Of a stretch of 58,395 nt of DNA, positions 13,990 through 53,631 are shown one piece after another. Each line of letters begins with the position of its first letter. Positions within the stretch are counted from its first letter, which is position 1. The notes beneath the pieces are model-generated. The model was not told where the DNA came from. It ran no database searches and was given only the letters and a program-made list of their open reading frames with translations. The position numbers were made by a program, and so were the translations under genes. The stretch comes from a virus: the IMG/VR virus record IMGVR_UViG_3300045988_082887; one strand, given 5' to 3'.

Positions 13990-14152
13990 GAGCGCTCCTT
14001 TCGTTGGATTTCTGGAAACAGGCTGTTGAGCACAGACCTGTCGGAAGCTACTGGGAAACTGTTCGCACTTCCAGCCGTGCTATTTTCCGCCCGGAAAACC
14101 TTCACAGTCTTTCTGTTTGCCGGACAGGCAATGGTTCAGACTGCGATTCGGA

Positions 14153-14221
14153 CGCGGAAGCTGGATTTGAACCAGCGGCCTCTTGGTAACCAAGCGAGCT
14201 ACCTGACTGCTCCACTCCGCG
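14153..14221 (-). ncRNA. tRNA-like element 1: canonical acceptor, D and T arms but a 3-nt anticodon loop
   Basis: Minus strand reads CGCGGAG-TG-GAGC-AGTCAGGTA-GCTC-G-CTTGG-TTA-CCAAG-AGGCC-GCTGG-TTCAAAT-CCAGC-TTCCGCG-T. Every arm pairs, but the anticodon stem closes on the triloop UUA. Confidence 0.55.
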
Positions 14222-14633: not shown

Positions 14634-17303
14634 TTAAAATGGCCTCTTGACAGGCTCGATTTTACTGATTCCGTTGTACAATTCATCGGCAAGCTGTGCC
14701 AGACTATCCGGTGCATCATCGTGCGGAACTTTGCCAAGCTGCGTGAACATCGTCACCTGTTCCATGAACGCTTTGTACTCTTTCGACTGGTGTTTCTCGT
14801 CAAGGAAGTAGAACCGCTTAATGTCCGGCGCATACTGGATGATTCTGGACAGCTTGCTTTGACCACTTGGCGCACGCTGGCTGCGAACAGAACAGTGATA
14901 GCCCTGTTGCCGGAGCTGACTATCCACCACATCACAGTATTCATCACCGCCGTTGTTGGCTTCGCCGCGTACCACGTTGATTTTGTGCTGGATGATTTTG
15001 CCAACGACTTCCGGTCTGGTCACGGTCTTATCGCCGTTATTGAACACAAGGTCTGGGATGAACACGGCATCGCCATACACATAGGCGATAGGACAGGCGG
15101 TGAAGTCACCGCCGCCCCATGCAATATCCATAACCATAAGCTTGCGATCAGGCTCTCCATCAGGCAGAACGCCGTTGAAATACCGCAGTTCATCGGCAGG
15201 GAACAGCAGACCTTCACGCACATAGGGCTTACCCATGTACTTTGCCCACCATGTTGCATCATCAATGCTGGCTTTCATGTCGGCATAGTAGGCGTCATCA
15301 AATCCTACGCCGTAGTCATAGTTGAAGTTGCTGTGTCCGTTCTCGTCCACCGCAGGAATTACCCGGAAGCGGTATTTCGGGTTGTCTGCATACTGGTTCT
15401 GGATGCGCCCCAGAGGGTCAAGAACGTTCCAGCGTGTACCGACCATCAGCTCTAATGCTCCCTGCTTTTTACGGTCTTTCAATTGGTTAAGGTAGGCATC
15501 GTACTTATTGTTTAGGCGCTCAACATTCAGGCTTTCCTCCAAGTCCTCAATCAAGTCATCGCTGTACAGAACGCCGCCCTCACCGATTTCAACAGCGCCA
15601 GTCAGAGTACCGCCAATAGAGCGACAAGTCAGGGTGGGGAATCGCTTCTTTCGATTCAGGTCAACGCTTTCGTCCTTTGCGCTCTTGTCCACAAGCTGAA
15701 CGTCAGGGAAGATTTTTCCCCAGTTGTAGGTAACAGGGTCGGTGATGATGGATAGCACCTCGCCGTAGAAGCCGTTGGTCAGCTTGTCAGAGTGCCCGCT
15801 CATAACCGATGCAACGTCCGGGCGGTTTCCCATAAGCCATGTGATGAAGAAAATGCACAGGGTACTGTTATGGGTAGGAATTAGCCGTTTGCCAGCGCAA
15901 TACACGCCGCCCTCAACCTGAATGCAGTTTCCTTGCTTCGGCTCGATGCGCTCAAACCCGCAAAACGCCACACGGCGAGGTTTGGAAAACTCCTTTAACT
16001 GCTTGCGAGGAACAACGCAAGGAATGGGGCAGGTAGGATTAAAAGAGATGGAATAGACTGTCAGATTGCCTTTAATGCCACTAGACGATACGCGAGGTGG
16101 ATATTCAACCACGCTGCATCTCCATCCAAAGGTAGAAACCAGCGTGACAAAATCATCTCTCATTTGCGGCTCTGTGGTAGAAAAAGCGTACCGATGCTCT
16201 TTTGCCCGTAACGTACCGTCTGTATCGAGCAGACCGGCAAGCAATTCCATACGCTGTGCAATGCTGGCTGTGAAGTATTCTTCTGGGATGTGCTTCACGC
16301 AGCGGCGGTGACTATGGCACATATCGCCTTTTTGAAGTGCTTGTCGCAAACCAGAGAATCCGTAGTATTCAACACCAGTGTCCTTGTGAACCGTATGCCA
16401 ACTAACCGGGTATCCATCGTTAATGACGCGCTCAACAATTACCCGATCACAAGGCGGCTCGCAAATATCCGGGTGTTGGTTGCGGCCATCGCCAAGCCAT
16501 GCGCCCAATGTGTACGGCTCAACAGGCAGTTTCTTATATTCTCCCTCAACAAAATTTTTGAACGGAACCTGATAACAGAATCTTATGCCATCTTTTGTAT
16601 CGGTAACATAATCCTCCATCATCCGCTTGGTTTCGACCACATCAAATCCGTTCTTATGGCGGTTAAAGACCGGCCACTCGTGGTTTTCGTGGCAGTCAAT
16701 GTATGTGCCGTCAGAGAAATGGCATCGCACATCAAGCTGACACTTAGGCGAAACTGCCAGCACCTTCACAAACTGGCCTTTCGGGCTGATAACTTCATCG
16801 CCAACTTGCAAATCGCCGTGATTCTTCCAGCCGTTTCGTGTAAGAATCGGCGTATCATCGCTCAAAGCCTTGCCCACGCGAGCCGGAAGGCTGACCCCCA
16901 AGAAATCTATCCGCTTATAAAACAAGTCCTCTAGGTCATCTGCCAGCACTTTCAGCACTCTGCGTCTGGGCTGATAGAACTTCTTCTCCGGCGCACGGTT
17001 CCATTCAAGGTAGATGCAATAACTGTCGAACACGTCTTTTGCTTCAAACAGGTACGTCCGGCTGATAATGTCATAGACCTTCGCCACGTCCTCGCCTGTT
17101 TTCATCTTGCCCATCATGGCCGCGCAGACAGAGCGCAGCTCACCAGAGTATTTGTAGGCATCGAACCGCTTGCCTTGCGGCAAAGCGTCTCTCAGGTTCA
17201 CGACCGCCTGAAACCAGTCCTCGTAGACCTGTGCTTCGGTCGGATTCTGCTTTGCATACGCTTTGATGCTGTCAATGATGGCGATACACTGCTTTGGCTG
17301 CAT
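14634..17303 (-). CDS. terL: Terminase large subunit precursor carrying an intein
   Basis: The Walker A motif is split: GVSLPARVGK, then the intein, then STLCIFFITW. A C-terminal nuclease-type region is present. The likely start is the ATG at 17303 (MQPKQC...) rather than the track start at 17357. Confidence 0.9.
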   Translation of the reverse strand: MQPKQCIAIIDSIKAYAKQNPTEAQVYEDWFQAVVNLRDALPQGKRFDAYKYSGELRSVCAAMMGKMKTGEDVAKVYDIISRTYLFEAKDVFDSYCIYLEWNRAPEKKFYQPRRRVLKVLADDLEDLFYKRIDFLGVSLPARVGKALSDDTPILTRNGWKNHGDLQVGDEVISPKGQFVKVLAVSPKCQLDVRCHFSDGTYIDCHENHEWPVFNRHKNGFDVVETKRMMEDYVTDTKDGIRFCYQVPFKNFVEGEYKKLPVEPYTLGAWLGDGRNQHPDICEPPCDRVIVERVINDGYPVSWHTVHKDTGVEYYGFSGLRQALQKGDMCHSHRRCVKHIPEEYFTASIAQRMELLAGLLDTDGTLRAKEHRYAFSTTEPQMRDDFVTLVSTFGWRCSVVEYPPRVSSSGIKGNLTVYSISFNPTCPIPCVVPRKQLKEFSKPRRVAFCGFERIEPKQGNCIQVEGGVYCAGKRLIPTHNSTLCIFFITWLMGNRPDVASVMSGHSDKLTNGFYGEVLSIITDPVTYNWGKIFPDVQLVDKSAKDESVDLNRKKRFPTLTCRSIGGTLTGAVEIGEGGVLYSDDLIEDLEESLNVERLNNKYDAYLNQLKDRKKQGALELMVGTRWNVLDPLGRIQNQYADNPKYRFRVIPAVDENGHSNFNYDYGVGFDDAYYADMKASIDDATWWAKYMGKPYVREGLLFPADELRYFNGVLPDGEPDRKLMVMDIAWGGGDFTACPIAYVYGDAVFIPDLVFNNGDKTVTRPEVVGKIIQHKINVVRGEANNGGDEYCDVVDSQLRQQGYHCSVRSQRAPSGQSKLSRIIQYAPDIKRFYFLDEKHQSKEYKAFMEQVTMFTQLGKVPHDDAPDSLAQLADELYNGISKIEPVKRPF
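15867..16868 (-). mobile_element. 334-aa intein (Ala1 ... THN/S) with a LAGLIDADG homing endonuclease, inserted in the terL P-loop
   Basis: Starts ALSDDTPILT and ends IPTHN followed by S. LAGLIDADG motifs are LGAWLGDGR and LLAGLLDTDG. Removing it restores GVSLPARVGKSTLC. Confidence 0.85.
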
Positions 17304-17346
17304 AAAAAAATAGGCACCCCCTACCTGAAAATGTAAAGAGTGCCTA
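17304..17346 (-). terminator. Hairpin plus U-run abutting the terL start (possible terminator or antitermination point)
   Basis: Minus strand TAGGCAC-22 nt-GTGCCTA-TTTTTTT, followed directly by the ATG. Confidence 0.3.
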
Positions 17347-17416
17347 CAACTGCACAAAAATCAAATATTCGGTTTTTATAATGCTGTTTTAGAAATTTTC
17401 TTTATTGACTTAGTTT

Positions 17417-17626: not shown

Positions 17627-17950
17627 TCACTGGTTATATAAAGTAGGCTTCGGTTCTTCATCCCCAAGCATCAACTTGTAACGAAGATACTTTTCGATAA
17701 TACCGTGTCTTTCTGCCAGTGTACCATAAATAAAGACGAGAGCATCTTTAGCAGCATCGTATTCATTCGGGAAAATGACAATTTCCTCGTTTGCAAAAGT
17801 CACGGTGCAGTTTTCCGAATGACAGGCTTCCAAAAACCTCTTAATTTCAAGGAATCCACAAAAGTCAAGCATAGACCGTAGCGTGATGCTTCCGTTCTTA
17901 ACAATCAGTTCTTCTCCCTGCATATTATCCAGCCTTTCTCTGTTCAGCAA
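17627..17950 (-). CDS. Hypothetical protein, paralog of 17972..18361
   Basis: ITLRSMLDFCGF...CHSENCTVTFANEEIVIF aligns with LTFRSVFDFVNC...CQSKKCNVLFYDENIFFDF in the neighbouring gene. Confidence 0.6.
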   Translation of the reverse strand: MLNRERLDNMQGEELIVKNGSITLRSMLDFCGFLEIKRFLEACHSENCTVTFANEEIVIFPNEYDAAKDALVFIYGTLAERHGIIEKYLRYKLMLGDEEPKPTLYNQ

Positions 17951-17971: not shown

Positions 17972-18361
17972 TCAAATAATGTTCGCTTGCTCATCAAGCC
18001 ACGTTTCGCGGTCAAGTCTTTCCTTCTTTTCGATTAAGGTAGGAGTAAACGTTTTATCGCTCTTCCATCCAGCGTATTTCTTAAAATACGCAAGATAATC
18101 TTCTGCTATTGCGGGAATACTTTCCAAAATAAATGTAAGAAGAGCAACTCTCATTTGCCGCTTAAACGTTTCGGAAGGGCTTTCTTTCTTGAAATCAAAA
18201 AATATGTTTTCATCATAAAACAAAACATTGCATTTCTTAGATTGGCATTCCAGCATAAAGGAAGTAAAATCTTTGCAGTTTACAAAATCGAAAACCGAAC
18301 GAAATGTCAAATCTGCATCTTTTTTGATAAAATCCCAATAAAACGGTTTTTGCTTTTCCAT
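17972..18361 (-). CDS. Hypothetical protein, paralog of 17627..17950
   Basis: Same shared motif as the neighbouring gene, in an AT-rich context. Confidence 0.6.
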   Translation of the reverse strand: MEKQKPFYWDFIKKDADLTFRSVFDFVNCKDFTSFMLECQSKKCNVLFYDENIFFDFKKESPSETFKRQMRVALLTFILESIPAIAEDYLAYFKKYAGWKSDKTFTPTLIEKKERLDRETWLDEQANII

Positions 18362-18453: not shown

Positions 18454-19110
18454 TTAGCGGTGGCTTGTGGTTGGGCTGCCGCTATTTTTATTTACGTATC
18501 TTTCGACACGCTCATACCAAGTAGATTTTCCAATACCAAGCTGCTTGCAACACTCTTTTACAGTGATTTCGCCTTTTTTCTGTTGTTTTAATAGGCTTTC
18601 AAACTGCTGCTCGTCAACTTGCTTTTCCTGTCTGCCGAAGCTACGGCCTGTTCTGGCTGACACTCGCTTGCCGTCAACAATGGGCATAGCAGCTATACCC
18701 TCTGCCTGACGCTGCTTGGTTTTCTTACGTTCCTGTTCAGCTACTGCGCCCAAAACCTCAATAAGGATGTTGTTTACCATTTCCAGCACCCACGTCTGGT
18801 CTTGGAAGTCAATAAGCGTGGTCGGAATGTCGAGAATGCGAACAATCACGCCTTTTTCTTTGAACCATTGAAGTTCTCGCTTCATTTCGTCTTTGTCACG
18901 CCCGAATCGGTCAAATTCCTTAACGATGACTTCATCCCCGGCCTTAACAGTCTCTTTTAACCGTTTATACTGCGGACGGTCAAAGCTACTACCTGTCATT
19001 TTATCACAAAATACATTCTCGTCCGGGATGTCGAACCGATCTCGTGCGATTTTAAGCTGTCTTGCAAGGCTTTGCTCCTTACTAGACACTCTAGCTAAGA
19101 AGTAACGCAT
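18454..19110 (-). CDS. Small serine recombinase (resolvase/invertase family) with a C-terminal HTH
   Basis: MRYFLARVSSKEQSLARQ carries the catalytic Ser motif; DRFGRD and the C-terminal VKECCKQLGIGKSTWY HTH are also present. The ATG at 19110 has the RBS GGGTGA. Confidence 0.85.
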   Translation of the reverse strand: MRYFLARVSSKEQSLARQLKIARDRFDIPDENVFCDKMTGSSFDRPQYKRLKETVKAGDEVIVKEFDRFGRDKDEMKRELQWFKEKGVIVRILDIPTTLIDFQDQTWVLEMVNNILIEVLGAVAEQERKKTKQRQAEGIAAMPIVDGKRVSARTGRSFGRQEKQVDEQQFESLLKQQKKGEITVKECCKQLGIGKSTWYERVERYVNKNSGSPTTSHR

Positions 19111-19122
19111 TTTTTTCACCCA

Positions 19123-25423: not shown

Positions 25424-25651
25424 GGGGGTGCAAGCTGTGATTTTATCCGCACTTCTGTTTTTCTTCTGGTTTTTTTCGGCGCTGTTTAAGGCAAGCAAGT
25501 AATGCCTATCGGACACTTTAGCGGGGCTGCACCGTAAAGCAACCCCGCCCCAGCCCAAAATGGCAAAAAACTTTCTGCAAGTCCTGTTTTTGGGGCTTGC
25601 AATATGCTATACTGTAAAAAAAGGGTAAAGCCCGGAAAGAAAGGTATCACC

Positions 25652-25867: not shown

Positions 25868-25878
25868 TAAAATTCTCA

Positions 25879-25910
25879 GCCCCGCCCCAAACCGGCGGGG
25901 CTTTTCTTTT
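25879..25910 (+). terminator. Rho-independent terminator
   Basis: GCCCCGCC-7 nt-GGCGGGGC followed by TTTTCTTTT. Confidence 0.8.
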
Positions 25911-26340
25911 GCCTTGCATCTGAAACGGTGCAGGGCTTTTGTTTTGCCCGGCGGCGTATCGGCCACACGCAAGCGTTTACAGCGGCTTTTATTTAGTCTA
26001 TGCAGTTATACCGCCAGCGACACAAAACAGCGTACAGGGCTTTACAGGCGCTTTTCCTGTGATTTGCCACATTATACCGCCGCAGATACCAGACCGACAC
26101 AAGCGGCTATAATACCGCCTGCGCCACGCTGGAGCACGCACACGCACCGAAACGCCCTGCGCCGATACCAAATACTACCGCTGCACTGGACGCTGTACAG
26201 GTCAACACAGCCGCCCCATTATAATAAGGTATATAAGGGTGCAGCAGATCGCAGACCATGCCAGCCCGGCGGGGCAGTCCAGTAGCAAGGGCACGGCGGG
26301 CGGAACTACTGGCGGCTTGTCGCCGCATCTCTTTTCGGCC
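25911..26340. other. GC-rich non-coding island with T(T/A)ATACCGCC repeats
   Basis: TTATACCGCC at 26006 and 26072, TAATACCGCC at 26110. No credible ORF is present. Confidence 0.5.
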
Positions 26341-27214
26341 TTTCGGTCGTAGCCAATAGAGGTCAGCAATAGTCGTAGCGTTCCGGCTGGAATAGTCGAA
26401 ACAGCTTCTGGAATAGTCGTAGCCAATAGTCGTAGTTTATCCGATAAAATAGTCGTAGAATAGTCGTAAAGTCATCAGACGACCAGCTTTTGAAAGTCCT
26501 ATATATAGTATAGTAACGAGCTGTCCGCTGATAGTCGCAGAGTAATAGTCGCAATGTTTTCTTGCGAATCATCGGCAAATAGTCGTGTATTTTTTGTGTG
26601 AAATAGTCGTTCGCCTTTTAGGAAAAAAGAGATGCGATAGTCGCTAAGTCATCCGACCACCAAAAAATCACTTCTCGTCACAATTTCGCATAATTTATTT
26701 TATATCCAGTTATATCTATTTCGTATAACAGTAGTACTTATTATAGTATACAGACATAGTTACTCCCGATAATCACGTATTATTTCGCATAATAACTAGT
26801 ACCATCCAAATCCGCTAGTTTCCGCTCAATTTAATTTTCAGTAATACACTATGACATTCCAACCAATCCATACTGCTTTGCTATGAATATTTATGCCTGA
26901 TAGTCGCAGTCAAGCTACGCAACATTTGTACATATCGAACCAACTGCAAAATGAAGTCAATTCTCCATGTGAAATAGTCGCAAATGGTGACAGGTCAGAT
27001 GTTGCTACCCTTTTCAGGATAGATGCTGTTGCCGTTGGAGGTCACCCGGTCGGCGCGGTGCGCCGGACGATAGAGGGTGACATAATGTAGAGGTCAGATG
27101 GACGGTATGCCTATATCCAGCCAATAGAACTTGACGGCAGATGTTGGTCACGGTCTGACCTGCTGGCTAACGGTATAGCTTTTGGAGATAGAGGGTTGTA
27201 GGGGGAAAGAACCT
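26340..27214. other. Putative origin of replication for the RepA_N/DnaB module
   Basis: Iterons, an AT-rich stretch at 26650..26880 containing ATTTCGCATAAT twice, and AGGTCAGATG repeats (26991, 27091, inverted at about 27150), all immediately downstream of the initiator gene. Confidence 0.65.
26368..26983 (+). repeat. Iteron array (A/G)ATAGTCG, 13 same-orientation copies
   Basis: Copies start at 26368, 26391, 26412, 26425, 26448, 26459, 26530, 26544, 26578, 26602, 26636, 26899 and 26973. Two more lie at 27851 and 27933, at the 5' end of the rep gene. Confidence 0.9.
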
Positions 27215-27919
27215 TTACAGGCGATTGAACTCTGGTTCACTGTACTGTTGCTTCTCTTGCTTTCTGTCAATCCACATATCAGCAAAGGCCTTCCAGTTTG
27301 TTATAGGCTTTCCGGTTTTGGTCATCCAACCTGTTCCCTCATAGTAGTTCATGAACCTGCTGGCAAGCCTATTCTCACATCCGGCATCCAAAAAATACTC
27401 GCTCACATCCTCGAAGTCCGGCGTGCTGGCGTTCCCATCGGGCGGGTCGCCCGCTTTCTTAATAACTTTTTTTCTTTTCTTTTCTTCTATATTAAGGAGG
27501 TGAACGATTGTTCCCCTCACAGGTGAAGCATCGTTCCCCTCAGAGGTGAATGATTGTTCACCTCCCTTTTCGCTCTTTGACGATTCTTTCGGCACTTTGA
27601 CGTATATCTTATCGGGCTTGTTCTTTCCTTCACGCTTGCGCTCGATCAACCCGGCTTCTTCCAGCTCTTTCAGAGACTTCTTGACCCATCGTTCTGTGAA
27701 TCCAGTATCGGCAGCAAGGTCTTTGATGGGATACACGATGTATACTCGCCCTAGTTGGTCAGCAAACTTTCCGCTTCTGCTTGCCCTCTGTGACGACCTT
27801 GCACGATTGAACAGGTAAATGTAAACAATTTTCTCTGTTGGGCTAACGCCAATAGTCGAGAGGAATCGAGGGTAGACCATGTACCCATTGACCTTTGTAT
27901 CGGCTGTCATGTATTCCAT
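27215..27919 (-). CDS. Replication initiator, RepA_N-like winged-helix N-terminus with a DnaD-like C-terminus
   Basis: YPRFL...SPTEKIVYIYLFNRA...GRVYIVYPIKDLAADTGFTERWVKKSLKELEEAGLIERK matches the RepA_N pattern. The ATG at 27919 follows AGGAGG. Confidence 0.7.
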   Translation of the reverse strand: MEYMTADTKVNGYMVYPRFLSTIGVSPTEKIVYIYLFNRARSSQRASRSGKFADQLGRVYIVYPIKDLAADTGFTERWVKKSLKELEEAGLIERKREGKNKPDKIYVKVPKESSKSEKGGEQSFTSEGNDASPVRGTIVHLLNIEEKKRKKVIKKAGDPPDGNASTPDFEDVSEYFLDAGCENRLASRFMNYYEGTGWMTKTGKPITNWKAFADMWIDRKQEKQQYSEPEFNRL

Positions 27920-28116
27920 TTTTTCCTCCTGCAATAGTCGTAGACCTCTACAATGCGCTCACAGCACCGTAAAGCCGTGCCAGCGCTGTTTTCTGTGTTC
28001 AGTCGATAGGTTTTGCCATCTGACGCTAAAAGCGTTTGTAGGGCTTCTGTGTGCGTATATGTAAAAGGCTGCCATTGCTGACAGCCCATACGCTCATATT
28101 CTGTATTTGCTTTCAA
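27907..28116 (-). CDS. Hypothetical protein (69 aa)
   Basis: ATGA overlap with the upstream lipoprotein gene. Confidence 0.45.
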   Translation of the reverse strand: MKANTEYERMGCQQWQPFTYTHTEALQTLLASDGKTYRLNTENSAGTALRCCERIVEVYDYCRRKKWNT

Positions 28117-28355
28117 TGCCGCAAGACCACGTTGGACGAATGAATCAAATAGGTCACGCCGTCAATCTTTACTTGCAGCTGGTCGCCCTCGTAATCGTCC
28201 CAACTATTCAGCTTGCCCTCAACAATCGTTCCATCAGGCATTTTCAGCTGTGCCCATGAGTAGCTATACGTCAGGTCTACCACCTGTTTGTTGCATCCAG
28301 TCATCAGCATAATGAGCGTAAGAGCGGACACACATACGGTCAAAATCTTTTTCAT
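28113..28355 (-). CDS. Small lipoprotein
   Basis: Lipobox LMTGC after a signal peptide. Confidence 0.7.
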   Translation of the reverse strand: MKKILTVCVSALTLIMLMTGCNKQVVDLTYSYSWAQLKMPDGTIVEGKLNSWDDYEGDQLQVKIDGVTYLIHSSNVVLRH

Positions 28356-28389
28356 AATCGTTTTCCTCCGTTTGTTGATTTTTATATTA

Positions 28390-29595
28390 TCAATCCATCC
28401 AAGTATACTCTTGGAACCGTTGAATCTGCTTGTTAAACGTGATGGGAAGGTCGCCTATCCCACCTTCCTTGTTCTTGCTCAGCCGAAACAGGTACTTGTC
28501 GGGGTTGTCGCCGGACAGAAGGATGATTGCATCTGCGTCCTGTTCAATCTGTCCGCTCTCTCGCAAGTCGGAGTTGGTAGGCGTTGCTCCGGGCTTGGAT
28601 GGGTTTCGATTGAGCTGTGCCAGTGCCACCACAACAATGCCTGTGGTCTGTGCCAGTTCGTGCAGGGCAATGGATATGGCTGTAATGGCGGCATATCTGT
28701 CCTTTGCGCCTGTTTCGTGGATGAGTTGAAGATAGTCTACGAAGATGACCTGAGCCTTTTTACGGAGAGCCTGCGCCTTCATCCACGCCACGTTCTTTCC
28801 GGCAGCGGAGCGGATATATAAGGGCATCTTCATGTTCTTTGCCTGTCCGTCAATCTCATTCAAGCTGACCGCCTTATTTTTCACCGTGTCCAGAGGGCAG
28901 TATATTTGATTAGCCATCAGACGTGCGCCCAGCTTGCGTTTGCTGGTTTCCAAGCTGAAATAGTACACAGTGTAGTCCTGCTTTGCCATGCTTGCTGCTA
29001 TTTGCAAGGACAGAGCTGTTTTGCCCGCAGACGGTCTGCCACCGATGATAATAAAATCACCCGGTGAGATGTGCAGCGCTTCATCCAGACGCTCTAGGCC
29101 TGTCTTTATATACACAGGCTTCTCGTCCATGTGAAGCAAATAGTCGTTCAGCACATCCTCGTATGTCCACGCATCTTCTTCCTCAGCTTTCAGGCTCATT
29201 GCTTCGCCCATCTGCTGGTAAATGTCTGATAGATCAGAATAGTCGGTAAGTTCGCTGGTCATCTGAAATGCCAGACCTTGCACACGAGTGAGTGCAGCTT
29301 GTTCTCTGATAAGCTGTGCCCAACGCTGCATCTGCTCCCTGTCAATTCGCACACACTCTGATTCACAGGTTTGTACACACGCCAAGAGCGTCTGCGCTAC
29401 GTCTTGATGCTGCGTGTTTATCTCGACTATATCTATCTTACCCCTAGCCGTCCAATAGCCCTGAACAGCCGCAAAAGCGTCTCTCAGCTCAGGCCTGAAT
29501 AAGTCAAGTTCAAGGTCTGGTATGATTTCATCCACAACGCCCGGCTTGCAGAGCATCAGCGCACCGATAAATACCGTTTGAACGTCCATTGTCAT
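28390..29595 (-). CDS. dnaB: Replicative DNA helicase, DnaB family
   Basis: Walker A motif GGRPSAGKTALSLQIA, the IFVDYLQLI motif and an N-terminal DnaB domain. Confidence 0.9.
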   Translation of the reverse strand: MTMDVQTVFIGALMLCKPGVVDEIIPDLELDLFRPELRDAFAAVQGYWTARGKIDIVEINTQHQDVAQTLLACVQTCESECVRIDREQMQRWAQLIREQAALTRVQGLAFQMTSELTDYSDLSDIYQQMGEAMSLKAEEEDAWTYEDVLNDYLLHMDEKPVYIKTGLERLDEALHISPGDFIIIGGRPSAGKTALSLQIAASMAKQDYTVYYFSLETSKRKLGARLMANQIYCPLDTVKNKAVSLNEIDGQAKNMKMPLYIRSAAGKNVAWMKAQALRKKAQVIFVDYLQLIHETGAKDRYAAITAISIALHELAQTTGIVVVALAQLNRNPSKPGATPTNSDLRESGQIEQDADAIILLSGDNPDKYLFRLSKNKEGGIGDLPITFNKQIQRFQEYTWMD

Positions 29596-30230
29596 AGTCT
29601 AGGAAACTCCATCTCCGTACTTTGCTCGTACTGGTCATCCTGTTTCAGTGCGTAAATGTCCTGCCATCCGGCATAGATGCTCTGGTCGAGAATGGCTTTC
29701 CAGTCATGCCGGTCAAACTTTTCCAGCTTGTTGCAGAGCATCTGTTTTGCCCGGTCTGTCATAGGCTTTTTGATTCTTGTACGCATCTGTGCGAACTCTC
29801 GCAGGGATTCCAGCAAGGCTTTATCGCCATGAGCAAAGTCGGAGAAGATGTCAGGTTTCTTTTTGACCGCACTTTCCGGCAGGGTATTGACGTTCATCTG
29901 ACTGTCAGTTGATACAATGGGCTCATTGTCATCTGACTTTGAACTCATAGATGAGCTGACTTTCATCTCATTTATGACATGAGGATGAGATGACTTTCGT
30001 GTAGACAACCCTTTTGACGCAATATCGCTTCTTTTTGATTCTTCATCGAGCAGATGCTTAATCAAAATGAAACAAGATTCTGCTTTTTTTGAGTTCAAAG
30101 TTGCGTCTTTTTCTTCAAAAACGTATGCACAGATTGCGTCGTAGAGTTCCAACTTCTCTTTACTTTTGAGTGTGGAGATGGCTTCAAAGTAGTATCGTTG
30201 GAATGTAAAGCTGTCTCGTTTTTTGTCCAT
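29592..30230 (-). CDS. Replisome organizer / DnaD-like helicase-loading protein
   Basis: N-terminal FTFQRYYFEAI...LYDAICAYVF and C-terminal KKPMTDRAKQML...GWQDIY. ATGA coupling to dnaB. Confidence 0.6.
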   Translation of the reverse strand: MDKKRDSFTFQRYYFEAISTLKSKEKLELYDAICAYVFEEKDATLNSKKAESCFILIKHLLDEESKRSDIASKGLSTRKSSHPHVINEMKVSSSMSSKSDDNEPIVSTDSQMNVNTLPESAVKKKPDIFSDFAHGDKALLESLREFAQMRTRIKKPMTDRAKQMLCNKLEKFDRHDWKAILDQSIYAGWQDIYALKQDDQYEQSTEMEFPRL

Positions 30231-30232
30231 GC

Positions 30233-30463
30233 TCAATCCTCTTTGTAGCGTTTGTTCCATGCTTCGATAAGGTCTTTCCTAATCTTTTCTTTATCAACTT
30301 TGGAACAATCAGAGTTGTATAGCTTGCTTTCCATGAATACCCGGCACTTGCATCCATTCTTGCCGACTCCTCTTGTTATAGACATCCAGCTTGTCAAATA
30401 GTCGCCTGCTTCGGCAATGGCAACTTTTCCACCGCAGAATGGGCATCTTTTAAGTTCTTCCAT
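30233..30463 (-). CDS. Lar-family restriction alleviation protein
   Basis: LKRCPFCGG at the N-terminus and IEAWNKR at the C-terminus match the Lar family pattern. Confidence 0.6.
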   Translation of the reverse strand: MEELKRCPFCGGKVAIAEAGDYLTSWMSITRGVGKNGCKCRVFMESKLYNSDCSKVDKEKIRKDLIEAWNKRYKED

Positions 30464-30475
30464 CTTTAATTCTCC

Positions 30476-30757
30476 TTAAAACAGGCACTCAGCGTCAGAT
30501 TCACGTAGCCAGCCTTCGCCCGGAATGTTGACTATCTCATAATACTGCCGTGCAACGTAGATTGTTTTCTGCCCATCCTCAGCGATCAGACCGACAATCA
30601 GATAGTTGCCAGCAGCCATAAAGAACCAAGGGTTGCTCTTGTAGGTCTCACCCTTCATCCAGTTCTTCATCCTGTTTACGGCTTTTTCAATGTCATTGTC
30701 GGGACAGTCCGGGTTGTCGTATGCAAAGAAATCCTCAGGAAATTTAAGTTTTTTCAT
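30476..30757 (-). CDS. Hypothetical protein (93 aa)
   Basis: ORF within the operon. Confidence 0.5.
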   Translation of the reverse strand: MKKLKFPEDFFAYDNPDCPDNDIEKAVNRMKNWMKGETYKSNPWFFMAAGNYLIVGLIAEDGQKTIYVARQYYEIVNIPGEGWLRESDAECLF

Positions 30758-30767
30758 GTTCTTAACC

Positions 30768-31001
30768 TCACACCATCGGAAACGACATCCAATGCGTTAC
30801 AATCACATCTTTCGGCAGTCTCTCGCCTATCTCATCCCAGAACTGACCGTCTGCGTAACAGCCAAGAAAATACGCTGTCGGCGAGATTCCTTGCAACATT
30901 TTTCCATCTTCATCACGCCACGTTGTCTTAGTCGCAAGCAACAAAGGCTGCGTCCGCTCTCGTGGCTGTTCGCTTGCCGGATGCCAGAGGGTGTTAGCCA
31001 T
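30768..31001 (-). CDS. DUF551-like protein
   Basis: C-terminal VTHWMSFP. The ATG at 31001 follows AGGAGA. Confidence 0.55.
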   Translation of the reverse strand: MANTLWHPASEQPRERTQPLLLATKTTWRDEDGKMLQGISPTAYFLGCYADGQFWDEIGERLPKDVIVTHWMSFPMV

Positions 31002-31476
31002 CGCTCTTTCTCCTTTCAATCTCATTGCAAACCGCCTTGTAGAACGTATCCCACATCTCATAGTCGCATCCCATGCCAAAGTCAAAATCAATCTTCTTGC
31101 GTCCTGCAATGTCACGTTCAAAGCAATCAAGGGTCTTGTCGGTCAGCTCTGGCAGAAGCGGTGTGATGTATCCGCATACAAAGCTTGGCATATATGAACG
31201 TCTGCCCAAGCAATAGCGCACAGCGCAGTTGCAAACCGCTCCAAAGTTATCATTAGTGGGGTCTACCATGCCTTTAGGTGCGTCTGACTTCAAATCGTTC
31301 ACGCTGCATTGAAGGGCTTCTGCGAATTTTTCCAGCCGCGTTTCTTTCTTCACGCTACGCTTCTGCTTTTCAACGGCACTTACATACGCATTGGTTGTTC
31401 CAATTATCCTTGCAACATCTTTCTGCGTGATGCCAAGTTCAAGCCTACGCTTCCTGATTTTCTCTCCCGTTGTCAT
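30994..31476 (-). CDS. XRE-family HTH protein with a C-terminal domain of unknown function
   Basis: GEKIRKRRLELGITQKDVARIIGTTNAYVSAVE. Confidence 0.65.
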   Translation of the reverse strand: MTTGEKIRKRRLELGITQKDVARIIGTTNAYVSAVEKQKRSVKKETRLEKFAEALQCSVNDLKSDAPKGMVDPTNDNFGAVCNCAVRYCLGRRSYMPSFVCGYITPLLPELTDKTLDCFERDIAGRKKIDFDFGMGCDYEMWDTFYKAVCNEIERRKSDG

Positions 31477-33552: not shown

Positions 33553-34305
33553 TCATTCTTCCGCTACCTCTCTGTACTCCACATCAATCCCCTTCGGCAA
33601 AGCCGTCTGGTACTTCTGGGCGAGCTGTTCTGCGCTCTGGGCATCGCCCAACGGCTGTTCAGGCGGCGCAACGGTGACTTCCACGTTGTCACGCATACCG
33701 AAGTAGTTCTTGGCTCGGAAAATCCACTCTGCCGGGTTCTCTTGACCATACATACCGTTGTATGCCCACATGGACTGCATTTGCAGAATTAGCTTCAAGA
33801 TGTACTTCTGCTGCAAGCTGTCGTCACGGCGTTTGCCTGTCATAATCTGTCTCAGGCTAGGCCATTCGATGCCCAGCACCAATGCAATCCATTCCACCAC
33901 AGGGGAGATTCTGGCTTCGATGCAAGCGTCAAAAAAGAAATCAAGGCGTTGCTGCACTTCAATCGGGTTGTTCATGTCCACGCTCGGAAGGTCTCCAAAA
34001 TACTTGGCTGCGATCATGCCGATGACCTTCTTGTCCTCTTCATCACCAATTCTCGACTGCAAATCACCTGTATTCAGCATCTTAGACCTCGTGATTGCTA
34101 ACTCCTGCTGTTCTTTCACCTTTTTACTCACCTGCGAGCGGATAGATTTCCGCTTGTTAAGCATCTGTTGTTTCTTCTTCTCTCGCTCTTTCTCACGCTT
34201 CGCAGCGGCTTCTTCTTTCGCCTTTTGCGCTCGCTTCTCACGCTTTTTCTTTTCAGCTTCGGTCAGCGGCGGTCTGCCACGACCACGCTTTGGGGGTGTT
34301 GCCAT
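33553..34305 (-). CDS. terS: Terminase small subunit (gp3-packaging-like)
   Basis: Basic N-terminus RGRGRPP; central YFGD...FFFDACIEARISPVVEWIALVLGI; C-terminal AEWIFRAKNYFGMRD, as in TerS families. Confidence 0.6.
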   Translation of the reverse strand: MATPPKRGRGRPPLTEAEKKKREKRAQKAKEEAAAKREKEREKKKQQMLNKRKSIRSQVSKKVKEQQELAITRSKMLNTGDLQSRIGDEEDKKVIGMIAAKYFGDLPSVDMNNPIEVQQRLDFFFDACIEARISPVVEWIALVLGIEWPSLRQIMTGKRRDDSLQQKYILKLILQMQSMWAYNGMYGQENPAEWIFRAKNYFGMRDNVEVTVAPPEQPLGDAQSAEQLAQKYQTALPKGIDVEYREVAEE

Positions 34306-45237: not shown

Positions 45238-45548
45238 TTGTCGAATTATCGTTGTTTATGATGAACATCTTGTACACCTTTCAACGAATTGATTTCTACT
45301 TGTGATGCAAACACTTCTCTTGTTGTGCAAATAAATAACGTTAATACGTTATGTTATCGCTCACTATAGCAAAATTATATTTTGATTGTCAAAACAAAAA
45401 CCTATGCACATTGAGTACACCGTTGCGTAAAATTGACTTTCATTTTGATAAAATAAGAAAAAATTAGAGATTATGGAACTTCTTCTTTTGTTTAGTAGAA
45501 GATTATTTAACTCTTGTTTATAATCTTGTTTATATATAATGTAAGAAT

Positions 45549-45643
45549 GGGTACGAAATGTGCATGATGGGGTACGAGATGTGCATAAGCGTGTACGAGA
45601 TGTGCGTCAAATAAGGGGGTCTAGGTGTACAAGATGTGCATGA
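45549..45643 (+). repeat. Four iterons, core GTAC(G/A)A(A/G)ATGTGC(A/G)T
   Basis: GTAC starts at 45551, 45572, 45593 and 45627 (spacing 21, 21 and 34 nt), preceded by an AT-rich region at 45240..45548. Confidence 0.85.
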
Positions 45644-45685
45644 GCCAATATAAGTGAATAAAACTATTGACGTGTACACCATTAT

Positions 45686-46798
45686 GTGATAAAATTAGTG
45701 TACAGAGAAAGGAGATGTACACTATTGGCAGACCTTTATGAAAATAACTTGATCGAAAAAAGCAAGGCGCTTGTTTGGGCAGAGTTTAATGATTACACTG
45801 TTGGAGAGCTGCGGCTTTTGGAAGTGTATCTTAGCCGTATCAACCCTAGAGATGAAAAATCTAGTGAAGTCAAGTTTACCCTTTCGGAATATTGCGATTT
45901 GCTTGGACTGCGTGTTAATAGCAGGAACATCGAGAAGCAAATCGAACATTTTCTTGGCAACGTTGTGACGCTTCCTCTTAATGACGATGGAAGCGAGTAC
46001 AATATGTATACGCTTTTTACGAAAGCAAGCGTTACGATTGATAAGAACTTAGGAATGTACGTTGTTACTCTCTGTTGCAACCCTGAATTGAGAAGTGTAT
46101 TCTTTGATATTGCCAAGAGCGGTTATATCAAGTATAGACTTCGCTACACGGTAAAAATGAAATCGCAGTATAGCATTTTACTTTATTCGATGCTGCGAGA
46201 TATGATGAATCGCGGCGGAGACCATTTTGATATTAGCATCAATCGGCTTCGTTCACATCTCGGCGCAAATGCAGGATGCTATGAAAGTTTCAAGAACTTT
46301 AGACGGAGAGTTTTGGATGCAGCGGTTGAAGAAATCAATGATGTGTCCGACATTTATGTTACTTACGAAAAAATCTCGTTTGGAAACAAGGCGGTTGCGA
46401 TTTCTTTTGCCGCTAAGAAAAAAGATGAAAAGCCTGTCGCCGAATTAAAGGCGAAAGAATATAAAGAAGAACTTCCATTCGATGATGACATTCCTGTCGG
46501 CAAACCGAATAAAAAGGCTTACAGTGATGTAGATTGGGAGAATATAGCGCCAGACCTTGAGAAATCAGAGTGCATCGGCATTGCAAGAATGGTTGGGAAA
46601 AGAATGGCCGAGAGCTTCCCTACTATTAAGGCTCATAAGAAGAAAGCTGCCGTTGTAAACATTGTGAGTAATGCGTACAATAAAATTTTAAGAGACAAGA
46701 AGGAATGGCCTGATAACCCTGCTGGCTATCTTTACAGAGTTATCGAAAACTCTGACTTAGACGAGTTTTCGACTTTTGACGATAGCTTCTTGAAGTAG
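45686..46798 (+). CDS. Rep_3-family (RepB-like) plasmid replication initiator
   Basis: NNLIEKSKAL...TVGELRLLEVYLSRINP and two winged-helix-like halves, with iterons immediately upstream. The start is either the GTG at 45686 or the TTG at 45725. Confidence 0.75.
   Translation: MIKLVYRERRCTLLADLYENNLIEKSKALVWAEFNDYTVGELRLLEVYLSRINPRDEKSSEVKFTLSEYCDLLGLRVNSRNIEKQIEHFLGNVVTLPLNDDGSEYNMYTLFTKASVTIDKNLGMYVVTLCCNPELRSVFFDIAKSGYIKYRLRYTVKMKSQYSILLYSMLRDMMNRGGDHFDISINRLRSHLGANAGCYESFKNFRRRVLDAAVEEINDVSDIYVTYEKISFGNKAVAISFAAKKKDEKPVAELKAKEYKEELPFDDDIPVGKPNKKAYSDVDWENIAPDLEKSECIGIARMVGKRMAESFPTIKAHKKKAAVVNIVSNAYNKILRDKKEWPDNPAGYLYRVIENSDLDEFSTFDDSFLK
45698..45722. promoter_or_regulatory. Inverted repeat GTGTAC-N13-GTACAC spanning the rep RBS (candidate autoregulatory operator)
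   Basis: Read directly. It shares the GTAC core with the iterons. Confidence 0.45.
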
Positions 46799-46830
46799 TC
46801 ATACACAGTAAATAAAGAAAGAGTGATAAA

Positions 46831-47604
46831 ATGGCAAAAATCATAGCTATCGCCAACCAGAAGGGCGGCACAGGAAAGACTACCACAAGCACCTGTCTGG
46901 CTGGTGCATTGCAGTTGCTTGGCAAGAAGGTGTTGCTGGTGGACTGCGATGCACAGTGCAACGCAACGGACACCTACGGCGCACAGACAGAGGACGTGTG
47001 TACCCTGTTCGATGTAATGACCCAGCAGGGTACGGTAGAGGAAGGAATACAGCACTGCGAAGCCGGTGACATTCTGCCGTCAGACAATGCATTGAAGGAC
47101 ATTGACGAGCAGCTTGTTCGGGACATTGGTAAGAACTTCCGGCTGCGAGAAGCACTGGAATCCGTGTCTGCACAGTACGATTACATTGTTTTGGACACTC
47201 CCCCGCAGCTCGGTCTTGCGCTTGTAAACGCTCTGATCGCTGCCAACAGCATCATCGTACCCATCACAGCAGACCGCTATGCGCTTGCCGGACTGAGCCA
47301 GCTTTCGCAGACCATTGGTGACGTTCGTAGATACTTCAACCCAACTTTGAAAATTGAAGGTCTACTTCTGAACCAGTACAAGAGCCGTGAGAACCTGTCC
47401 AAAGAGGTCGTAGAGCAGCTCCCTGTGATTGCACAAAGCATGGGAACAAGGCTGCTTGACGTGAAGATTAGACCGTCTATGGGCGTTCGTAAAGCGCAGG
47501 CAGAGCGGCACAGCCTGTTTAGCGGTGACACGGCAAAGAGTACCAGCGCAGAGGATTTCAAGGCGTTGGCGCAAAAAATTGTAGAGGGGGATAAAAATGA
47601 ATGA
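46831..47604 (+). CDS. parA: ParA/Soj-type partition ATPase
   Basis: Deviant Walker A motif IAIANQKGGTGKTTT and the LVDCDAQ motif. Confidence 0.9.
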   Translation: MAKIIAIANQKGGTGKTTTSTCLAGALQLLGKKVLLVDCDAQCNATDTYGAQTEDVCTLFDVMTQQGTVEEGIQHCEAGDILPSDNALKDIDEQLVRDIGKNFRLREALESVSAQYDYIVLDTPPQLGLALVNALIAANSIIVPITADRYALAGLSQLSQTIGDVRRYFNPTLKIEGLLLNQYKSRENLSKEVVEQLPVIAQSMGTRLLDVKIRPSMGVRKAQAERHSLFSGDTAKSTSAEDFKALAQKIVEGDKNE

Positions 47605-53290: not shown

Positions 53291-53631
53291 TATTTCGTTC
53301 CTTTCTGAAAAATCCCCCACTTTGCCTACAACGTACCCCGCATGGAACGCAGAGCTTCGACAAAGCAAGGGAGTTTTTTTGTAAAATCAAGAGCGGAAAT
53401 GCCCACAGGCAATGCCGCTCTCTACAAATGCCATAGCCTTTCAAGTCTAAAGGCGTCTCCCGCATGGTACGCACTGTAAGTAGGCGGGCGGGAGACTGTT
53501 CAGCGCCGAATCTGTCGACTGCTTTTTTCATTCCAAGATAAAGCACTGGGCTAGCTGGCAAATATCCACCCTAATGCGCTTCTTCGAGAGGCCGGGTAAA
53601 TTTGTTGATGTTATTATACCACAAATCGTGC

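Follow-up and report, generated by a model that had tools for sequence, protein, structure and literature searches.

The locus described here raises the question of which protein reads a dense array of short direct repeats, ATAGTCG, that occupies part of a non-coding stretch (26369-26980) of the virus record IMGVR_UViG_3300045988_082887 in IMG/VR. The window, i.e., the whole stretch of DNA that was analysed (58,395 nucleotides), looks like the complete genome of a tailed phage of the human gut, and its close relatives in IMG/VR comprise hundreds of viral contigs of 55-60 kb. A sequence-only reading of the window had interpreted the repeats as the iterons of the adjoining RepA_N-type initiator and the region as a second, plasmid-type replicon, in the manner of P1-like phage-plasmids. 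The comparison of related and unrelated phages separates the array from this initiator and links it to a small-terminase-like gene, and the array is, on balance, probably a pac-type recognition signal for DNA packaging.

The 58.4-kb window contains 23 copies of ATAGTCG, where 3.83 are expected (standard deviation 2.1, maximum 10, 100 shuffles), and 20 of them lie on the + strand. Thirteen same-strand copies, the number given by the sequence-only reading, start at 26369, 26392, 26413, 26426, 26449, 26460, 26531, 26545, 26579, 26603, 26637, 26900, and 26974. Eleven of them are packed in 275 bp and form the main array (26369-26643, +), which is characterized by the extended consensus RATAGTCGYAR and by neighbour spacings of 23, 21, 13, 23, 11, 71, 14, 34, 24, and 34 bp; on the - strand, that is the coding strand of the early genes, the unit reads CGACTAT. 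The two distal copies (26900-26980, +) are located on the far side of an AT-rich stretch. The two extra copies (27852-27858 and 27934-27940, +) that had been placed at the 5' end of the initiator gene are also found there, the former inside the 5' end of rep and the latter, a 12-mer (CAATAGTCGTAG) identical to array copies, just upstream of the GGAGG ribosome-binding site of rep; both are conserved in the related loci L003-L005 (L numbers denote the loci compared). The long form AATAGTCGTA(G/A) does exist in six copies as claimed, but only five of them belong to the array, the remaining one being that at 27933. The sequence-only reading had missed that the same-orientation copies continue as a set of six (27852, 27934, 29140, 29239, 30398, and 31060; 0.26 expected, P = 4e-7), just as it had missed three 23-bp repeats inside the rep gene. 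These six copies span ~4 kb (27852-31066, +) on the terS side of the array, and scattered same-strand copies are also present in relatives that are rep-less or have an alternative DnaB.

The AT-rich spacer (26650-26899), which contains ATTTCG(C/T)ATAA at 26683, 26718, and 26782, is partly conserved and is swapped out in some close relatives; the A+T content of 26650-26900 is 67% in comparison to 52% for the window, with a peak of 74% per 100 nt. As had been described, ATTTCGCATAAT is found twice in it (26683 and 26782), and a third, less exact copy lies at 26718; a second repeat family follows, in which AGGTCAGATG occurs at 26992 and 27091 in direct orientation and at 27154 as an inverted, partial copy. 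The AGGTCAGATG / GGTGAC repeats belong to a variable insert (about 26985-27117) present in ~20% of relatives. The array itself, whose conservation in related phages the earlier proposal had implied, is retained in 81/81 related loci first examined, with 7-14 copies in a single orientation, while the stretch that carries it shows 70-88% identity with indels versus 92-97% for the adjacent gene. Because it is conserved despite the faster divergence of this non-coding stretch, the array is considered functional.

The array also occurs in phages unrelated to the window. In the contig L101, which has no nucleotide similarity to the window and whose replication genes encode a CHC2 primase and a DUF927 helicase, 11-13 copies of GATAGTCGCT lie directly after the gene of a 296-aa protein matching PHROG 606, terminase small subunit (8e-7). 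The open reading frame (ORF) at 33553-34305 (-) of the window is homologous to this gene (32% identity over 133 residues, E = 4e-11) and encodes a small-terminase-like protein of 250 aa, the proposed reader of the array, whose relatives match P22 gp3 / GP3_package. A second DNA-pattern scan retrieved 126 viral loci outside the family of the window, 57 of which encode a homolog of the 250-aa protein; in 57/57 the TAGTCG cluster is oriented alike with respect to the terminase-like gene, and its start falls at -76 to +174 nt (median 27), counted from where the protein match ends on the 3' side, and 44 of the other 69 loci are regular minisatellites. The reciprocal test was carried out on 48 homologs (26-40% identity) found by protein alone, without motif selection, in GTDB genomes of Oscillospiraceae, Ruminococcus, Lachnospiraceae, and other groups, since a protein-anchored scan of viral contigs filled with the window's own family. 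In 26 of these 48, 4-18 copies of CGACT are present in the interval from 100 nt before to 400 nt after the stop codon, where 0.5 are expected, and the variants CGACTAT, CGACTTT, and CGACTC sort by protein clade; the same gene-array relation is observed in L409. Prophages of isolates carry the terS-like gene too: that of Flavonifractor sp. An92 (L425) has the array, and in Lachnotalea glycerini DSM 28816 (L423) the homolog has no CGACT array. The array is a putative cis element that is co-inherited with the small-terminase-like gene across divergent phages. The spacings in the independent arrays peak at 7, 9, 11-12, and 19 bp, and a helical phasing of the repeats was rejected, the spacings showing no single phase. 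Other clades have different arrays instead of CGACT, such as GTAACTTT in 17 copies or GCAGAA in 4-5 copies (L452, about 187-600; L414, L438, and L458), which is consistent with specificity switches.

The terminase identity of this family is suggested by several lines of evidence. PF16677 (GP3_package) matches 13/21 aligned family members (best E = 1.4e-13), and the family alignment displays the usual helix-turn-helix and FRAKNYFGM core; a profile search of the PDB with the alignment gave nothing significant by sequence. The top four PDB matches of the structural model of the 250-aa protein (predicted local distance difference test, pLDDT, 77) are all to 3P9A, the P22 gp3 nonamer, with a probability of 0.69-0.87. 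In addition, zero matches to a terminase small subunit were obtained in the ORFs scanned next to the large terminase (TerL). The recurring gene order is terS-like gene, array, opposite-strand small genes, small serine recombinase, TerL, and portal. The terS-like gene never directly adjoins TerL, from which it is separated by 2.5-4 kb in relatives and by 16 kb in the window.

In the packaging reading, we infer that the 250-aa terminase-like protein, as an oligomer, would bind the same-orientation heptamers through its helix-turn-helix motifs and, once bound, would position the large terminase (14634-17357, -) to make its initial cut close by, perhaps within the AT-rich DNA that separates the 11-copy from the 2-copy cluster; from there, headful packaging would proceed in the direction of the late genes. 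Repeats on both sides of the cut are a known layout of pac sites, which the 11 + 2 copies and the AT-rich stretch between them fit. Several observations weigh against this assignment. The 250-aa protein of the window reaches zero Pfam or PHROG terminase models, and its model resembles P22 gp3 weakly (E about 0.9, target-normalised TM-score 0.40-0.57). The adjacency of gene and array seen elsewhere is absent in the family of the window, because ~6.6 kb separate the array from the terminase-like gene and ~9 kb separate it from TerL. Moreover, 22/48 homologs are without a CGACT array, though many have other repeats, and the relation between motif class and protein similarity is not significant overall (P = 0.12). 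The array directly follows the replication module and abuts an AT-rich stretch, an origin-like anatomy, and two good ATAGTCG copies lie over the 5' end of the rep gene. The contig ends falling in the array region (4 versus about 2.3 expected, Rep-anchored contigs) are uninformative. The pac assignment is therefore put only a little above an even chance, owing to the missing direct match to a terminase model, the weak fold match, the 6.6-kb distance, and the origin-like location.

The distribution of the rep gene bears on the proposal that the 13+2 copies are iterons of the RepA_N protein, forming its origin and autoregulatory sites. In 56 close relatives, selected by the array through the IMG/VR DNA-pattern scan and with enough flank to be judged, the rep gene is present in 10, an unrelated 100-aa ORF (MALTNIERETIINFNAAEDTAEIYTADPVYIRKLDKL...; e.g., L104 5528-5830 and L113 7113-7415) takes its place in 30, and neither is found in 16, with a median of 9-11 array copies in all three groups. 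In the alignments, 27220-28352 (approximate limits) behaves as a swappable cassette, whereas the array and two short flanking blocks remain: a block at 26913-26982 around the distal copies persists even in rep-less relatives, as does an almost invariant block of ~85 bp just 3' of the rep stop codon (27134-27219), which contains GGTCACGGTCTGACC. The RepA_N gene is a separate optional cassette, present in a minority of relatives. Since Rep is missing in the other 46/56 array-bearing relatives with the array size unchanged, and from all 57+26 independent arrays, the array is not regarded as the iterons of RepA_N, and this part of the sequence-only reading is not sustained. The vicinity of the array to the rep gene, the two bona fide copies at the rep 5' end conserved in L003-L005, and the use of out-of-gene origins by some RepA_N initiators, as in PLE (PMC7145576), speak for an iteron function; nevertheless, ATAGTCG is asymmetric and only 7-11 bp long, and semi-palindromic repeats of the initiator's own are present at 27498-27564 and in every distant homolog checked, making the iteron function very improbable. 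In terms of annotation, a dense direct-repeat array beside a rep gene need not be the iterons of that rep.

A different origin has also to be weighed, i.e., a lytic origin made of the array and the AT-rich stretch and read by a conserved non-Rep protein, the DnaD-like organizer or another factor, with the AT-rich region as the unwinding element. The array is indeed immediately 3' of the organizer-DnaB(-Rep) module, lies on both sides of a 250-bp stretch with 67% A+T, and is downstream of primase and helicase genes in L101-type phages too; such a placement recalls the SaPI ori, an example of an origin located 3' of the rep genes. The main argument that disfavours this explanation is the constancy of the CGACT motif, which is unchanged across unrelated initiator and helicase sets (DUF6291 + DnaB, alternative organizer + second DnaB, CHC2 + DUF927, and AAA_25), while origins normally co-vary with their initiator; in particular, relatives whose organizer differs and whose DnaB is only 50% identical keep the array, and so do the unrelated phages with a CHC2 primase and a DUF927 helicase. 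Furthermore, its sole constant neighbour is the terminase-like gene, the independent arrays have no general strong AT-rich neighbour (100-nt maximum of 0.65 versus a locus mean of 0.56), and the AT-rich stretch can be replaced in close relatives, so that a lytic origin is judged unlikely. Improbable as well is that the homolog family consists of DNA-binding regulators or partition-type proteins and that the array is their operator or centromere, acting at the early-late operon boundary, as a late-switch element or as the centromere of ParA. The omega protein of pSM19035 and the Inc18 plasmids, a ribbon-helix-helix dimer, has operator/centromere arrays of contiguous heptads, and the 7-bp direct repeats considered here, often abutting (spacing peaks at 7, 9, and 11 bp), resemble them as runs of 7-bp units on which a single small DNA-binding protein assembles in many copies; they differ in the irregular spacing in the window and in the link to a helix-turn-helix terminase-like protein. 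The position of the terminase-like gene as the last of the early operon, 2.5-16 kb from TerL, and the missing direct terminase-model match of the window protein agree with a regulator, and a ParA for which no centromere was identified is encoded in the window. On the other hand, parA is 20 kb from the array, which is found in loci that also carry TerL and portal, and the GP3_package matches in 13/21 members, the PHROG terminase small-subunit match, the top structural match to P22 gp3, and the zero small-subunit matches in the scanned ORFs next to TerL are in favour of a terminase.

If the packaging signal is extended to the whole family, gp3-like small terminases of gut Clostridia phages would read pac arrays of 5-18 same-orientation CGACTWT heptamers, a tentative generalization that is possible but has the odds against it. 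In this case, one repeat would be contacted by each helix-turn-helix of the terminase ring, the clade variants would set the packaging specificity, and the extra same-strand copies over ~4 kb could be sites of oriented guidance or loading. Systems of each kind involved here, i.e., pac sites, RepA_N replicons, and phage-plasmids, are already known; the apparent novelty lies in how this signal is built and how widely it occurs, as oriented heptamers in many copies that accompany a widespread gp3-like terminase family of gut Clostridia phages, and a narrow literature search found no prior description of such a heptamer array signal. The pac site of P1 consists of hexanucleotide clusters that flank the cut region. 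The pac of SPP1 is composed of three sets of direct repeats, pacL-pacC-pacR (PMC4737164, PMC9611059). As in both of these phages, several short repeats are located on either side of a central region and are tied to the small terminase, with the site at or near terS; most relatives have the array right at, or overlapping, the terS 3' end. In contrast to them, the copies are many more (5-18), consist of one asymmetric heptamer in one orientation, and are placed at the 3' instead of the 5' end of terS, with a displacement of 6.6 kb in the family of the window. In P22 (PMC9611059), gene 3 itself contains pac, a 22-bp asymmetric sequence present once; the protein family is apparently the same (GP3_package in the homologs, 3P9A as the top structural match) and pac is again linked to terS, but here a multi-copy array would take the place of the single in-gene site.

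For most of the small terminases studied, binding to pac DNA is weak and lacks clear sequence specificity (PMC9611059, PMC4737164), and their DNA recognition is called unresolved in reviews (PMC9611059). If true, this family-wide packaging reading would offer a multivalent, sequence-specific model for the recognition of DNA by small terminases, and a family with an obvious multi-copy array and clade variants would be an unusually tractable system for the disputed selection of viral DNA. Pac sites, and hence packaging specificity and transduction potential, would become predictable from sequence in abundant phages of the human gut.

The product of 27215-27919 (-; 234 aa from the ATG at 27919) is, as predicted from its sequence and structural model, a RepA_N-type initiator, in agreement with the sequence-only reading. 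In phmmer searches against the PDB it matches 4pta (E = 1.8e-6), 4pt7, 5kbj, and 4pql, and the top 8 Foldseek matches of its AlphaFold2 model are the same RepA N-terminal domains (probability 1.0, E down to 8e-6), with superpositions at a root mean square deviation of 1.6-1.9 A over ~87 residues; these entries are pSK41- and pTZ2162-type crystal structures. The search with PF06970 that had been suggested gave a mixed outcome: precomputed annotations list this family for nearly all homologs, but the protein itself scores 22.3 bits, below the curated cut-off of 30, while HTH_36 (PF13730) passes (26.7 versus a cut-off of 25). The model is organized in a winged-helix domain (1-112), a disordered linker (113-163, pLDDT <50), and a three-helix C-terminal domain (164-226).

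The DNA of the linker holds three tandem 23-bp semi-palindromic repeats, GGTGAAC-n4-GTTCMCC (27498-27564, TRF score 92), adjoined by an A/T-rich tract that is A-rich on the coding strand (27440-27497). As 23 bp is not a multiple of 3, the period cannot stem from a peptide repeat. Among 64 distinct sequences, third codon positions are invariant in 27440-27497 and variable in 5/41 cases within positions 346-470 of the gene (125 nt) versus 114/194 elsewhere; over all sites of 346-470, the constraint has a Fisher P = 6e-6. Four copies of the internal repeat are present in L003, the most divergent phage relative, and four distant RepA_N homologs have 3-4 repeats with a 23-bp period at the same gene position and with different sequences (L003, L006, L008, L010, and L011 for repeats of this kind). 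The distant Rep homologs (32-45% identity) are found in RepA_N + IstB/DnaC pairs of conjugative or mobilisable elements, and the downstream array is absent from them. Rep is shortened to 184 aa in two assemblies (L004 6001-6555 and L005 5119-5673) by the loss of 1 nt from the A-tract just behind the 23-bp repeats, and the internal repeats are intact in both. The origin of RepA_N replicons lies in the middle of the rep gene and is made of semi-palindromic direct repeats (PMC5703833, PMC7145576), and the repeats at 27498-27564 together with the A-tract are the candidate iterons and origin of this initiator. The similarity to the RepA_N replicons pSK41, pTZ2162, and pAD1 (PMC5703833) and to the RepA of PLE (PMC7145576) includes the N-terminal winged helix, the short helical C-terminal domain, and the dispensable-looking disordered linker whose DNA holds tandem semi-palindromic repeats and an A-tract. 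Unlike in the RepA_N plasmids, the gene is an optional cassette of a phage, with DnaB and a DnaD-like organizer as neighbours, and its Pfam RepA_N score stays below the curated cut-off where HTH_36 passes.

The neighbourhood of an initiator, a DnaB, and a DnaD-like organizer, also part of the earlier description, is borne out by the annotation. The early genes on the - strand are arranged in the order cro-like helix-turn-helix, Lar, DUF6291/DnaD-like replisome organizer (29592-30260, 222 aa), DnaB-type replicative helicase with a DnaB_C domain (28390-29595, 401 aa), 80-aa ORF, and RepA_N-like gene, and they are convergent with + strand genes ending in two terminators (25878-25936), with a gene-free zone of 1.35 kb (25870-27214) between the convergent units. 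BLASTP finds zero similarity between Rep and the DUF6291 protein; a C-terminal E-x-E-F-x-R-L is common to the RepA_N-like protein (EPEFNRL, 27215-27235) and the organizer (EMEFPRL, 29592-29612), and this tail may be a docking tail, e.g., for the helicase encoded between the two.

A Rep_3 replicon is located at 45548-47604 (+) and comprises four iterons of 21-22 bp directly upstream of the gene (45548-45645; spacings of 21, 21, and 34 bp), the Rep_3 initiator (45686-46798; Rep3_N 77.5 bits, Rep3_C 55.5 bits), and ParA (46831-47604). Two plasmid-type initiators, RepA_N and Rep_3, co-reside in one phage genome. The notion of a second plasmid-type replicon is retained in part, as a RepA_N gene with candidate internal iterons beside a Rep_3 system with four iterons and ParA, but the ATAGTCG array does not belong to it; a second and, arguably, a third replication system, the organizer-DnaB module and the optional RepA_N cassette, stand beside Rep_3/ParA. 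P1-type phage-plasmids have separate plasmid and lytic replicons. The comparison with them is reasonable as far as a phage carrying a plasmid replicon is concerned, not for ATAGTCG as RepA_N iterons: in common are a complete tailed-phage genome with Rep_3, four iterons, ParA, and phage replication genes, and the zero integrases in the window ORFs scanned, whereas the protein families differ and the RepA_N cassette is present only in a minority of relatives. GC skew tracks gene orientation and is uninformative on origins.

The window further encodes the large terminase, an SPP1-type portal, a major capsid protein, a GH25 lysin, an ERF recombinase, a RecU-like protein, two Rha/ANT antirepressors, and a small serine recombinase. 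Next to the array, the + strand segment 25936-26345 contains ATACCGCC three times at 26008-26119. It also has a box that is conserved (TATTATAATAAGGTATATAAG, about 26216-26240) and a hairpin plus T-run (26310-26335); the part between box and hairpin, which has inserts of 40-90 nt in relatives, may correspond to a short transcript that stops directly ahead of the array. A structured RNA in 25936-26345 is not supported by co-variation (covariation term -0.08), Rfam has no match above threshold within 25.9-27.2 kb, and the region has no match in a plasmid database. Elsewhere in the window, Rfam matches above the gathering score are those of a RAGATH-5 RNA (25509-25559, +; 60.3 bits), a DUF3800-VIII RNA (53311-53374, -; 65.6 bits), and a tRNA model (14152-14221, -; 51.4 bits), for the last of which ARAGORN makes no tRNA call.

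The large terminase of the window is 907 aa long versus the about 410-567 aa matched in relatives. The extra segment, which runs from right after the Walker-A lysine (PARVGK|ALSDDTPILT) to IPTHN|STLC, looks like an intein and is absent from some close relatives. The small serine recombinase (resolvase type, 190-250 aa; 18454-19119, -, in the window, 7490-8059 in L408, and 6774-7364 in L409) lies between the terS-like gene with its array and TerL in many otherwise unrelated phages, where multimer resolution, inversion, or a packaging-related function are possibilities. Upstream of the large terminase, the ORF at 17972-18361 (-), for which a Pfam and PHROG scan gave no match, and the adjacent one at 17627-17950 (-) are apparent paralogues that have in common the motif C-x-S-x-x-C-x-V-x-F.

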